A stretch of 57,250 bases of DNA from Oscillospiraceae bacterium (lineage in GTDB: Bacteria > Bacillota > Clostridia > Oscillospirales > UBA929). The stretch's first letter is position 1; every line of letters begins with the position of its first letter. The stretch spans positions 1 to 57,250 of the forward strand of contig WRMG01000004.1 in assembly GCA_009777255.1 (NCBI GenBank), read 5' to 3'. The position numbers and the translations under genes are program-made. This document shows positions 20,142 through 50,341 of this stretch, piece after piece. The notes under the pieces were generated by a model. The model worked only from the letters and a program-made list of their open reading frames with translations. It was not told the origin of the DNA and made no database searches.

Positions 20142-20634
20142 AGTTACAAGTTAATAGTTACGAGTTACAAGAGGACGGGGGAGCGGTAGTTACAAGTTAC
20201 AAGATACAAGTTACAAGAGGATGACGGGGTACGGGGGACGGGATAAAGTTTGGGGGAAAACACCCGCCGACTGCGGTCGGCCACGGGACGCCGAGGGCGT
20301 CGTCCCCTACAGCCGAACCAGTTGCAAGTTACTAGTTACTAGTTACAAGATACAAGATACAAGTTACAAGTTACAAGAGGATGACGGGGTACGGGGGACG
20401 GGATAAAGTTCGGGGAAAAACACCCGCCGACTGCGGTCGGTCACGGGACGCCGAGGGCGTCGTCCCCTACAGCCGAACCAGTTGCAAGTTACTAGTTACT
20501 AGTTAATAGTTACAAGTTACAAGAGGACGGGGGACGGGGAGTTATAAGTTATAAGTTATAAGTTATAAGTTATAAGTTATAAGAGGATGGGGGCTTCGTT
20601 TCTTCTTGTAACTTGTAACTATTAACTAGTAACT
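20142..20634. repeat. Composite repeat array: heptamer tandems, G-rich spacers and a 160-bp-period duplication carrying two palindrome types
   Basis: AGTTACA/AGTTACT/AGTTATA/AGATACA units; 20209-20345 repeated at 20369-20505; 6x AGTTATA at 20540-20581; inverted heptamers at 20607-20634. Confidence 0.95.
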
Positions 20635-25674: not shown

Positions 25675-25860
25675 CTGACGCATGAAAAAATAAAACGGCC
25701 TCGCGGGGATAAAACACCCGGCCCTGCGGGGCCACCCTCTTTACAAAAGAGGGCAAAGATAGGCTTTTGCGCATCCAAATCCCTGCCCTCTTTCGGAAAA
25801 GAGGGTGCCGACCGCAGTCGGCGGGTGTTTTTCCTTGAGATTTATCTTTTCATGTGTCAG
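25675..25860. mobile_element. MITE/REPIN-like element made of two inverted copies of the DUF559-associated repeat
   Basis: Ends CTGACGCATGAAAA / TTTTCATGTGTCAG; internal inverted AAAACACCCG-hairpin-ACCCTC..GAGGGCA units; 18-bp flanking direct repeat with one mismatch. Confidence 0.65.
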
Positions 25861-41165: not shown

Positions 41166-41333
41166 TTACAAGTTATAAGTTACAAGTTATAAGTTATAAG
41201 TTACAAGAGGACGGGGGGACGGGGGGACGAAAAACGGCGCGATGAGGACATCGCGCCCTACGGACGGGGGCCCTGCGGGGCCGGGTGTTTTTCCCCTGCG
41301 GGGGCGTTTTATTTTTTCATGTGTCAGCCCTGC
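41164..41333. repeat. Composite repeat: six heptamers, G-runs, GTAG-REP and a partial DUF559-type repeat
   Basis: AGTTACA/AGTTATA x6 (41164-41205), AGAGGACGGGGGGACGGGGGG, a REP identical to 25630, then a close reverse complement of about 25669-25733. Confidence 0.85.
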
Positions 41334-47088: not shown

Positions 47089-47176
47089 TACCCGATAGGG
47101 CGGGGTGGTTAAAGAGCGGGAAAAACCGACCACCCCGTCCGGCTTCGCCGTCTGCCCCATTGCTAATCAGCAGATT

Positions 47177-47830: not shown

Positions 47831-48586
47831 TTACTCCCATACATACGCCCCGGACGGCAGGAGAAACACCTCGTCGTCGGGGCGTTGCAGCGTAAGCTCC
47901 AACAGCGTGAACTCCCATATCGGCACGCCGTTACGGGCGGCGGCCGCCCGCGTCAGCATCCCGCTTTCCAGATCTATCCAATACTCAACGTCCGCCGACA
48001 TGATGCTGGCCTTTATCCAAACTCCCGGGGCTTCGGTTTCGCGCATATACTCGGCGCCGGTTATGTCATCGGGAGCGATGTCCAGTATATCCTCGTAGGT
48101 CGGCATACGGCCCGCCGCGTCGGCCGAGAAAAAGCCGCGCGCGATCTCCTGCACCTGCTCGTTTAGCCACATGTAAACCTTGTCAGGGGTATAAATCACC
48201 CTGTCCAGCAAATCGCCGTCCTCATACCGCTCTATCAGCTGATAGTCGTCCAGAGTATAGAGGCGGTGCGTCCACTCGCGCGACATATCGCCGCCGTAAA
48301 CCACTGTGCTTCCGGCGCTTGAATATGCGGCGGGGCGCGGCATGGCGGCGATAAGCGCCGCCGCGTTTTCGCGTGTAATCTCGACAAGCTCAAGATTGAG
48401 CGCGCCGGAGGAGGCTATCTCCTCCGCCGGCGTGTTGACCTCGGACAGTTCGTTGGGGTCTGGCGGCAGAATGATTCGGGGATCGTTTCCCTCGCGCCGG
48501 AACATATAAAATAACGCGAACAGCACCAGCACGGCCGTAATCACGGCCGCCCAAGACGCCAGCTTCGCGTTTTGCTTACGGTTCAT
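47831..48586 (-). CDS. Hypothetical membrane-anchored exported protein
   Basis: N-terminal TM helix; YWIDLESGML and PDDEVFLLP resemble LolA-like folds. Confidence 0.7.
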   Translation of the reverse strand: MNRKQNAKLASWAAVITAVLVLFALFYMFRREGNDPRIILPPDPNELSEVNTPAEEIASSGALNLELVEITRENAAALIAAMPRPAAYSSAGSTVVYGGDMSREWTHRLYTLDDYQLIERYEDGDLLDRVIYTPDKVYMWLNEQVQEIARGFFSADAAGRMPTYEDILDIAPDDITGAEYMRETEAPGVWIKASIMSADVEYWIDLESGMLTRAAAARNGVPIWEFTLLELTLQRPDDEVFLLPSGAYVWE

Positions 48587-48740
48587 AGTTTAATGCTCCC
48601 CCTGTCAGGGATTATATATCAGTTGATAGGGAGGGGTGAATACGGATGATTCTTGTTAGTTTATGCTGTTTTAGAAGGGATTACCCTCAGCGCGAATATA
48701 GCCCATACACTGCTTCGCTCACATCTCTCAGTCTCGCTTT

Positions 48741-48791
48741 CAAAACACCCGCCGTCTGCGGACGGCACCCTCTTTACTAAAGAGGGCAAGG
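48741..48791 (+). repeat. 51-bp palindromic repeat, left flank of the DUF559 gene
   Basis: CAAAACACCC-GCCGTC-TGCG-GACGGC-ACCCTCTTTACTAAAGAGGGCAAGG. Confidence 0.92.
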
Positions 48792-48801
48792 ATAGGACAG
48801 A

Positions 48802-49158
48802 TCAATCGTTGTACAAGTCTACATATTTTTGTATCGCCGCACACACTTCGTCAAATGAAGCATCTATCTCTGTGTTGGTAAAACGAAGAACGTGCAGTCC
48901 CAAACTTTCAAATAAATCAGTACGTATGCTATCGTACTCTAAGCCATTGTCTGTATAATGCTGGTTCCCGTCAATTTCAACAACAAGTTTTTTTGACGGA
49001 CATAAAAAATCAACGATATAGTTATCTATAGGTTTTTGTCTTGTGAAAGGACAAGGGTGTTTTCTCAAAAATTCATACCACAATTTATTTTCTTGCGGAG
49101 TGGCGTTTTTACGCAGTTCCTGCGCTCGTGGTTTATACTTGCGATTGTATTGTATCAC
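48802..49158 (-). CDS. DUF559 (Vsr-like PD-(D/E)XK) endonuclease
   Basis: RAQELRKNATPQE.KLW..LR, FTRQKPIDNYIVDF.C..KKLVVEIDG.QH, D..RT...LGL.VLRFTN. Confidence 0.93.
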   Translation of the reverse strand: MIQYNRKYKPRAQELRKNATPQENKLWYEFLRKHPCPFTRQKPIDNYIVDFLCPSKKLVVEIDGNQHYTDNGLEYDSIRTDLFESLGLHVLRFTNTEIDASFDEVCAAIQKYVDLYND

Positions 49159-49176
49159 CGTATCATCTCCATATGA

Positions 49177-49227
49177 CCTTGCCCTCTTTAGTGAAGAGGG
49201 TGCCGCCCGTAGGCGGCGGGTGTTTTG
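49177..49227 (-). repeat. 51-bp palindromic repeat, right flank of the DUF559 gene (inverted)
   Basis: Reverse complement matches 48741-48791 at 47 of 51 positions. Confidence 0.92.
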
Positions 49228-49237
49228 CTTTTTACCG

Positions 49238-50341
49238 CTATGGAATTTCAGCGTCCAATATCGCCTTCACTATCCTCTCGCTTGCCTTGCCGTCGCCGTA
49301 GGGGTTGACGGCTTTCGCCATCCTCTCGTACTCTTTCCTGTCATTCAGCAAAAGCTCCGTTTCCCTGACGATAGCGTCATATTCCACGCCGCATACCTTG
49401 ACCGTGCCCGCCTCCACCGCCTCGGGGCGCTCCGTTTCGCGCCTGAGGACAAGCACGGGCTTGCCCAGCGCGGGCGCCTCCTCCTGTAAGCCTCCCGAAT
49501 CCGTCAGCACCAGCGCTGACCGCGCCATAAGGTTGTGCATGTCCCAGACATTCAGCGGCTCGATGAGCCGCGCGCGGGGCGCGTCCCCCAGCATGGCGTT
49601 CGCCGCCTCGCGCACGGCGGGGCTTAGGTGTACGGGCCAGACAAGCTCCGTATCGGGATTGGTTTCAAGTATATGCCTAAACGCGCGGAGAATGTTTTCG
49701 AGGCCGCCGTAATTCTCGCGGCGATGCACAGTGACCAGCAGCAGCCGTTTCGAAAAATCCACAGTTTTTATATCTTCGGATTCAAACGCGTAATCGCCGC
49801 CGACCGTTATATTCAGCGCGTCTATCACGGTGTTGCCCGTGACGTATACGTTTTCGGTTATGCCCTCGTTTTTCAAATTCAGCGCGTTTTTGACGGTGGG
49901 GCAGAAATGCAGGCCGCAGATACGCGAGGTCATGCGCCTGTTCATCTCCTCGGGAAACGGCGAATAGCGGTTGTCCGTCCGCAGCCCGGCCTCGACGTGG
50001 CCCACGGGTATCTTGGCGTAAAACGACGCCAGCGCCGCCGCGAACGTCGTCGAGGTGTCGCCGTGTACAAGCGTCAGGTCGGGCTTTAGCGCGGCGAAAA
50101 CGTCCGTCAGGCCGTTCAGCGTGCGGCTGGTAATATCCGCGAGGGTTTGGTTTTGCGACATGATCGCAAGGTCGGCGTCGGGCTTTATATCGAACTTCCG
50201 CAGAACCCCGTCCAGCATTTCCCTGTGCTGGCCCGTAACGCAGCAGAGCGCGTCTATATCGGGACACGCCTCCAGCTTGCGGATCAGCGGCGCCATCTTG
50301 ATTGCCTCGGGACGGGTTCCGAATACGGTCAAGACCCTCAT
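49238..50341 (-). CDS. wecB: UDP-N-acetylglucosamine 2-epimerase (non-hydrolysing)
   Basis: VFGTRPEAIKMAP, TGQHREML, HVEAGLRT, SPFPEEMNR, TDSGGLQEE, NPYGDG. Confidence 0.96.
   Translation of the reverse strand: MRVLTVFGTRPEAIKMAPLIRKLEACPDIDALCCVTGQHREMLDGVLRKFDIKPDADLAIMSQNQTLADITSRTLNGLTDVFAALKPDLTLVHGDTSTTFAAALASFYAKIPVGHVEAGLRTDNRYSPFPEEMNRRMTSRICGLHFCPTVKNALNLKNEGITENVYVTGNTVIDALNITVGGDYAFESEDIKTVDFSKRLLLVTVHRRENYGGLENILRAFRHILETNPDTELVWPVHLSPAVREAANAMLGDAPRARLIEPLNVWDMHNLMARSALVLTDSGGLQEEAPALGKPVLVLRRETERPEAVEAGTVKVCGVEYDAIVRETELLLNDRKEYERMAKAVNPYGDGKASERIVKAILDAEIP

Follow-up and report, generated by a model that had tools for sequence, protein, structure and literature searches.

What does a small nuclease gene do between two inverted copies of a hairpin repeat? 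The question is raised by a 57,250-nucleotide stretch of DNA from an Oscillospiraceae bacterium (contig WRMG01000004.1, positions 1 to 57,250; here called the window), in which a 118-aa gene of the DUF559 family is enclosed by 51-nt inverted arms at positions 48741..49227. An earlier note, made from the letters of the window, had proposed that gene and repeats form the autonomous unit of a repeat family recognized by its structure. We followed this up in the source genome (G000; an assembly of 1.17 Mb in 55 contigs, 64% complete), in related genomes (other G numbers), and at sampled loci that include metagenome ones (L numbers). A specific association between DUF559 genes and flanking repeats recurs across phyla and is well supported; the repeat tracks the DUF559 lineage across hosts, not the host, and the arm-gene-arm block behaves as a single inserted unit. 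Judging from these sequence patterns, the protein very probably acts on the repeats. At a rough probability of 0.45, we favor the reading that DUF559 and the two-hairpin repeat may form, by analogy, a cognate nuclease-repeat system of the REPtron type, with a Vsr-like enzyme replacing the HUH transposase. In systems of this type, a low-copy nuclease gene lies between inverted copies of the dispersed palindromic repeat on which it acts.

The two arms are 385 nt apart and match at 47 of 51 positions (92% complementary), as the earlier note had described. They stand 10 and 18 nt from the ends of the DUF559 open reading frame (ORF): the left arm lies 10 nt past the stop codon, and the right arm lies between the stop of an epimerase gene (49238) and the DUF559 start, a GTG with GGAGA 7 nt upstream. 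Folded as single-stranded DNA, each arm gives the two hairpins reported before (z about -5), and 0 to 1 of 200 shuffles fold as well. Both arms score as intrinsic terminators when read outward, which for the left arm is on the - strand. The gene is indeed AT-rich (37.6% GC versus 56% in the flanks) and is co-oriented with the epimerase gene, and no convincing promoter was seen inside the unit. In the window, a 26-nt core of the arm is matched 3 times, with 0 expected.

Homologous units occur in four other genomes (G028, G016, G015, and G013); DNA similarity to them sets in and breaks off no more than 4 nt from the outer ends of the arms, and by tblastx the flanks of the five genomes have nothing in common, G028 and G016 being represented by one 1.4-kb flank each. 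An empty-site allele, one of the checks suggested in the earlier note, was found in G002, which belongs to the same genus, and in metagenome locus L155; in both, the epimerase stop overlaps the start of the next gene as ATGA. Relative to G002, G000 has about 650 bp extra, made up of the unit and 154 bp of unique DNA. The empty site holds no repeat in either G002 or L155, so the arms arrived with the gene or before it. At the closest metagenome relative, L123 (epimerase 85% identical), there is no DUF559 gene and a different hairpin doublet occupies the same junction, which has been hit more than once. This doublet is of the CCTCCC type and sits at L123:3587-3693, exactly at the gene junction of the G000 unit. 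No similarity was found between it and the 154-bp spacer of G000, whose - strand bears a promoter-like site (48640-48611; 10 of 12 consensus positions). The tetranucleotide CTTT stands immediately outside both arms in G000, and had been put forward, if weakly, as a possible target duplication; we rejected this candidate and read CTTT as chance, because no comparable duplication was found at the homologous units of the four other genomes.

A genome-wide count, likewise suggested earlier together with a covariance model, showed that the repeat is abundant in G000. We found 27 copies by blastn-short, 42 by nhmmer (E below 1e-4), and 50 by a covariance model built from 25 aligned copies (E up to 0.001), and all 42 nhmmer copies lie between long ORFs. 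The compensatory stem changes that the earlier note had seen are real: one base pair of hairpin 1 is CG in 5, UA in 5, AU in 4, and GC in 1 of the 25 copies, one base pair of hairpin 2 is UA in 21 and CG in 3, and 92.6% of cells in the alignment are paired, versus at most 67.7% with the partners slid. None of 500 shuffles reached its covariation score. On the 5′ side, the alignment conserves AAAACACCC; a GTAG-type tag beside the hairpin is absent from it. Eight of the nine close pairs of copies are in the (+,-) orientation of the arms around DUF559, and three 120-nt doublets (fold of -42 to -43 kcal/mol, z of -7.5) share a common spacer and were therefore copied as units. In G000, as in G028, no opposed pair other than that around DUF559 encloses a gene at a spacing below 900 nt; the G000 pair at C3:9020-9363, whose arms are 241 nt apart, contains no DUF559 remnant. 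A search of 4227 Rfam families against the arms of 7 loci gave no match at E up to 0.1. An unrelated three-hairpin element with GUGAA spacers, at L113:3188-3263 and 350 nt from the DUF559 arms, resembles Rfam Gut-1 (41 bits; gathering score, 50).

The gene-less copies that had been listed in the window were scored with the covariance model, with filters off (Table 1), and fared unequally. Those near 25711 and 25780-25830 are full copies; as a doublet (25706..25836), they are oriented like the arms around DUF559 and fold into a long hairpin of -43 kcal/mol. The copies near 20257 and 20417 are variants: they have the A-run and hairpin 1 (the first half only) in common with the family but a different second hairpin. 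The one near 41269 is weak, and the supposed diverged copy at 47100-47158 gave no covariance-model match at E up to 10 and is not a member by that test. Tandem heptamers of the GTTACAA/GTTACTA type occur beside or inside repeat copies: between the two variant copies in the window (20300-20390) and within a doublet at C13:4500-4580 of G000.

We compared 41 related genomes, which as kin are not independent, and found DUF559 genes in 11 of the 19 that bear the repeat versus 2 of the 22 that do not; in those two, hairpin repeats of other kinds flank the gene. Each of the six genomes that combine at least 15 copies with a best E below 1e-13 carries DUF559, 59-81% identical. G028, a member of another family, has 145 copies, up to 98% identical to the window arm, together with the closest DUF559 protein (81% identical); the GC content of its sampled loci is about 40-47%, versus 56%. 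Its gene apparently lies between two doublets, the right-hand partner having missed E 1e-4, and a second gene copy in G022 clearly does so. Locus L215 (G015:C2:35000-50500; 15.5 kb) holds 12 high-scoring copies on one strand, plus weaker opposed partners, which occupy nearly every intergenic gap of a same-strand gene cluster. Short fragments covering the C-terminal third or two thirds of the DUF559 domain (G009:C2:79368-79493, G022:C41:5308-5436, and G015:C24:15856-16098) look like decayed copies.

The association extends well beyond these relatives. Scanning one genome per species yielded 596 relatives, and we examined the 80 best of them, which come from Bacillota, cyanobacteria, and six other phyla; 78 of these loci have an intact DUF559 ORF, and the gene is lower in GC than its flanks at 87 of 92 loci. 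Inverted flanking repeats (score of at least 30) were found at 37 of the 80 loci versus 4 of 412 shifted intervals. The earlier note had named equal frequency of the repeat around unrelated genes as an outcome that would tell against it; in this sample, inverted or direct repeats flank 47 of the 80 DUF559 loci, versus 5 of 136 non-adjacent ORFs of the same loci and 9 of 229 ORFs overall. Arm sequences differ between clades, but a common plan recurs, with a hairpin A that has a G-rich 3′ arm, an optional hairpin B whose stem varies freely, and a second G-run. A script written to detect a hairpin plus repeated G-run within 130 nt picked out 63 of 80 genes; in controls, its hits were 0 of 80 for shuffled flanks and 3 of 137 for shifted places. 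Repeat types sort by clade in the protein tree, and paralogues within one genome have repeats of their own. A complete Microcoleus genome encodes three DUF559 paralogues, each beside a different hairpin-plus-G-run variant, and these variants are dispersed in 53, 44, and 8 copies (reversed-pattern controls, 0); G043 has three DUF559 genes and three repeat types. The hairpin of G042 occurs 41 times, for the most part in (+,-) doublets with a spacing of 108 nt, and the gene there lies within a pair so oriented. Per genome, 1-3 DUF559 gene copies stand against 8-145 repeats. On the G-rich strand of several variants (L229, L231, and L238; E. coli, Microcoleus, and N. gonorrhoeae), four G-tracts separated by loops of 1-3 nt make up a textbook quadruplex motif that would compete with the hairpin; one example is GGGG-AGA-GGG-TTA-GGG-TGA-GGGG.

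Two well-known species carry similar arrangements. In E. coli K-12 (locus L216; K-12 1351040-1351830), the last 13 nt of the DUF559 gene ycjD overlap a hairpin like that of an element found in 16 copies at up to 3 mismatches (control, 0), which consists of a hairpin, TTA, and a second G-run. A full copy of this element follows 167 nt after that hairpin, and a remnant of the 3′ end of ycjD (39 nt, 90% identical) lies between the two; the element is found solely on the 3′ side of the gene. We take it, provisionally, to be BoxC, which was reportedly first seen beside envM/fabI (by Bergler, in 1992) and for which we know of no partner enzyme. The element carries no annotation in RefSeq, and no consensus is printed in the tables consulted of PMC2267715 and PMC5172473. 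The same two papers describe BoxC as an orphan family of 56 bp with 22-33 copies in E. coli; no link between BoxC and YcjD was found in our literature searches. The segment fabI-ycjD-sapF is present in one piece in 3343 of 5426 complete E. coli genomes; in the other genomes listed, the match ends at base 364 of the query, some 40 nt short of the repeat, and one strain has TetR and resistance-nodulation-division (RND) efflux genes there. In N. gonorrhoeae, the gene of the 3hrl type is flanked by direct repeats of about 110 nt on the same hairpin-plus-G-run plan. The 18 copies of this repeat, 17 of them on one strand, form a few clusters and are not dispersed, with an array-like spacing of about 281 nt; the clusters lie at 48.8-59 kb and 1.35-1.41 Mb.

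To our knowledge, no function has been settled for DUF559, a very large family in which one structure has been solved. The 118-aa window protein matches the Pfam model (PF04480) over residues 8-112 with E of 5.2e-30 (104 bits; cut-off, 20.6), bearing out the earlier assignment. Among Pfam models, it matched only DUF559, MTES_1575, and DUF2726, with no match to the Vsr model, and it scores 79.8 bits against NCBIfam PRK09767 (“DUF559 domain-containing protein”), below the equivalog cut-off of 218. A profile of the protein and its relatives matches the solved Neisseria structure 3hrl_A (E of 1.6e-25 over 93 residues) and, more weakly, the group I intron homing endonuclease 3r3p (“mobile intron protein”; E of 7e-4). 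Residues D50, E61, D63, and H67 are invariant in 68 relatives and, by analogy, are probably catalytic. The sole PADLOC match was a weak one (22 bits), to the model of a methyl-directed restriction enzyme, and PHROGs gave weak matches to phage endonuclease families. In tblastn searches at E 1e-10, matches were found in 22 of 72,556 plasmid records, several of them chromosome-sized, and in 2 of 50,697 phage records; the DUF559 gene is thus mainly chromosomal.

Table 1. Positions of the arm-gene-arm unit, its neighbors, and related features (window coordinates unless a contig or locus is named)
Feature	Position	Strand	Evidence or remarks
Left arm, two-hairpin repeat copy (model R1)	48741..48791	+	Inverted repeat; covariance model, 79 bits; hairpin 1 at ~48750-48767, hairpin 2 at 48768-48786
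DUF559 gene, 118 aa, GTG start	48802..49158	-	Pfam match
Right arm, inverted repeat copy	49177..49227	-	Inverted repeat; fold; covariance model, 72 bits; hairpin 2 at 49182-49200, hairpin 1 at ~49201-49218
Unique spacer, 154 bp, between left arm and next gene	48587..48740	.	Promoter-like site on - strand
Upstream flanking gene, UDP-N-acetylglucosamine 2-epimerase family	49238..50341	-	Pfam Epimerase_2, E 1.4e-115
Downstream flanking gene, 251 aa, no Pfam family	47831..48586	-	Orthologue directly after epimerase gene in G002, L155, and L123
Gene-less doublet	25706-25762 and 25777-25836	+ and -	62 and 76 bits; full copies
Variant copies	20252-20300 and 20412-20460	+	31.3 and 27.5 bits
Weak half copy, GGCCC-type hairpin then GGGTGTTTTT	41247..41296	-	14.1 bits, E 0.05
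RAYT-like HUH protein, 169 aa, only one in G000	C18:13576-14085 (L203:277-786)		Between hisH- and hisA-like genes

The unit shares features with several known systems and differs from each. Miniature inverted-repeat transposable elements (MITEs) and autonomous insertion sequences likewise include short gene-less derivatives that share their ends with a gene-bearing unit, and IS200/IS605 elements have hairpins at their ends, although these are not inverted repeats. The window unit, by contrast, has neither a DDE nor a Y1 transposase and no target duplication, and at 487 bp it is smaller than any insertion sequence known to us. A close parallel is with repetitive extragenic palindromic (REP) sequences and the REP-associated tyrosine transposase (RAYT), for which we draw on PMC3333891, PMC8266576, 10.1101/119735, PMC3733652, and general knowledge. 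Both systems have a low-copy, mostly chromosomal nuclease gene flanked by inverted, dispersed intergenic palindromes; inverted doublets that fold into long hairpins and are copied as units (like REP doublets forming hairpins [REPINs] or bacterial interspersed mosaic elements [BIMEs]); covarying stems; and a repeat family for each paralogue. Here, however, the enclosed protein is Vsr-like PD-(D/E)xK rather than an HUH Y1 transposase, the repeat has two hairpins, or one plus a repeated G-run, with no GTAG tag, and the system is patchy among relatives, with signs of transfer between families. Many bacterial hairpin repeat families have no known partner enzyme; one of these, the CGTC REPs, is described in PMC3733652. 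The intron-encoded enzyme I-Bth0305I (PDB 3r3p; EDxHD) belongs to the same fold group and is likewise encoded by a small selfish gene (PMC3424549, PMC9403480); it is only weakly similar, as its E value above indicates, and its target is one unique site in a gene, in contrast to a dispersed repeat. Vsr and Caulobacter VsrA, which bears a DUF559 domain (PMC12907096), have the PD-(D/E)xK Vsr-like fold; the window protein differs from them in lacking a Pfam Vsr match and an adjacent cytosine methylase gene. No description of a repeat association for E. coli Vsr or Caulobacter VsrA was found in the literature consulted, nor did our literature searches yield any published link of DUF559, YcjD, or Vsr-like proteins to flanking dispersed repeats.

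Several observations weigh against a REPtron-like role. The 80 loci were picked as top matches to an alignment that itself consists of flanked genes, and they share ancestry, so P values overstate the case. Direct rather than inverted repeats flank 19 of the 80 loci (versus 2 of 412 shifted intervals), and flanking repeats are absent from one clade, 12 of 92 proteins. Arm orientation relative to the gene varies, hairpin A being gene-proximal in the window unit and distal in other clades, and doublet orientation differs as well, all 47 close pairs in G028 being (-,+). The earlier note had named abundance of the repeat in genomes that lack DUF559 as a point that would tell against it, and this is in part what we see: G011, G019, and G024 have 17, 35, and 44 low-scoring copies (best E of 1e-7 to 1e-10), and G002, G003, and G021 have 6, 2, and 5 high-scoring ones, with DUF559 not found in any of these six assemblies, which are 82-93% complete. 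Y1_Tnp matches, too, are commoner with the repeat (12 of 19 repeat-bearing genomes versus 6 of 22 others). No target duplication common to the homologous units was seen, and we know of no strand-joining activity in a 118-aa PD-(D/E)xK nuclease. The repeat-free clade (L056, L057, L062-L065, L068, L077, L092, L099, L102, and L050) occupies housekeeping contexts, one locus having VTC/DUF4956 and mreB genes and another a UvrD/PD-(D/E)xK helicase-nuclease and an SbcC-like gene; one assembly in it carries two identical DUF559 copies.

A selfish gene that takes the repeats as its target would explain the data just as well, and the main rival is a free-standing gene of the homing type, for which the repeat or doublet would be the target and break repair the means of entry, the repeats themselves having spread otherwise. 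We regard this as possible, if on balance unlikely. The profile match to 3r3p agrees with it, as does the grouping of Vsr, DUF559, and the 3r3p enzyme in PMC3424549. In G000 and G042, the gene takes the position of the short spacer of gene-less doublets, between arms of the same orientation; in E. coli, the ycjD remnant lies between two repeat copies; and the gene is AT-rich, patchily distributed with signs of horizontal transfer, and not found in some repeat-bearing genomes. A homing gene fits less easily with genes that lie between two doublets, not within one, in G028 and G022, or with G000 arms whose hairpin-1 stems differ from those of most doublets. We favor a REPtron-like role over a homing parasite because the gene remains at 1-3 copies although potential target doublets number in the dozens, because the empty site in G002 is free of any repeat, and because no other candidate mobilizer that tracks the repeat was seen.

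The last point bears also on whether the repeats are REP-like sequences moved by a RAYT-like transposase, or by another unseen enzyme, with DUF559 a passenger between copies. The co-occurrence of Y1_Tnp matches with the repeat is in keeping with this, and so is the single RAYT-like HUH protein of G000 (Table 1), which is encoded by an AT-rich gene, has the motifs HVH and YHDRIIR, and is nearest to the NCBIfam “REP-associated tyrosine transposase” (62 bits; cut-off, 80). However, no repeat copy lies within about 500 nt of the RAYT-like genes of G000, G028, G016, and G024, and the G000 and G028 proteins are only 37% identical, though the repeats are near-identical; the repeat therefore follows DUF559, not the RAYT-like gene. 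Among the ten genomes that have 15 copies or more, five lack a Y1 match, the arms have no GTAG tag, and a chance passenger would not be expected to be of the same family from cyanobacteria to Clostridia to E. coli. We thus consider a passenger role improbable. A programmed switch, in which the inverted arms make an invertible cassette that is on or off relative to read-through from the upstream operon, appears more improbable still. It would suit a gene that is co-oriented with the epimerase gene and has no convincing internal promoter, and “DUF559 domain-containing protein” is enriched 14.3-fold among predicted programmed-inversion targets (a table in PMC9881135), so the inverted repeats had been noticed statistically and read differently. 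Among public sequencing runs, none was listed as containing positions 48300-49700. A switch leaves unexplained the dozens of gene-less copies, the loci with direct flanks, and the clade-specific repeat types. The neighbors of the DUF559 gene, the epimerase gene and a gene with no Pfam family, include no invertase gene and no methylase gene, and an unlinked methylase was not searched for. The methylase matters for the view that the association is coincidence or housekeeping, with terminators or mRNA-stabilizing hairpins beside a small acquired repair gene, possibly a Vsr-type mismatch nickase; the Caulobacter DUF559 protein is Vsr-like and linked to an unlinked cytosine methylase (PMC12907096). 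The outward arms do score as terminators, and all 42 nhmmer copies of G000 lie between long ORFs. A terminator-only reading was rejected: by crude ORF calls, 8 of the 17 scorable solo copies point the terminator way (7 of the 24 were unscorable), and hence their orientation is unbiased. Flanking repeats are enriched 37-fold relative to control ORFs, and generic terminators would not be expected to pair variant by variant with paralogues, which leaves housekeeping with only a very slight chance of being right.

Under the REPtron-like reading that we favor, the DUF559 protein would recognize the hairpin structure or the G-run motifs and nick or cut there. It would then fall to host replication and repair to copy the repeat, and at times the whole 0.49-kb unit, into new intergenic sites, possibly through fold-back priming from a nicked hairpin, which could also produce inverted doublets; the outward terminator-like arms may make such insertions tolerable. 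Given that the enzyme is small, that arm orientation varies, and that no duplication is seen, nicking and host repair seems a better account than classical transposition. Of the autonomous unit proposed in the earlier note, the specific, recurrent link that tracks the protein thus stands, and mobilization by DUF559 is what we infer. A bolder and quite tentative proposal, which we think rather unlikely to hold in full, is that DUF559/YcjD nucleases are the missing enzymes of orphan “hairpin plus G-run” repeats in Clostridia, cyanobacteria, E. coli, and Neisseria. The 0.49-kb block would then be the smallest autonomous mobile unit known, spreading itself and its gene-less copies through a nick and host fold-back or repair synthesis, with no strand transfer of the transposase type.

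Together, these results give a testable function to the DUF559 nuclease family and to the repeats alike, through a pairing that spans phyla. E. coli K-12 seems to carry such a pair, ycjD and the 16-copy element, so the function can be tested there. If the nuclease drives the spread of the repeats, it would represent a second, mechanistically different route to REP-like repeats and an unusually small unit.

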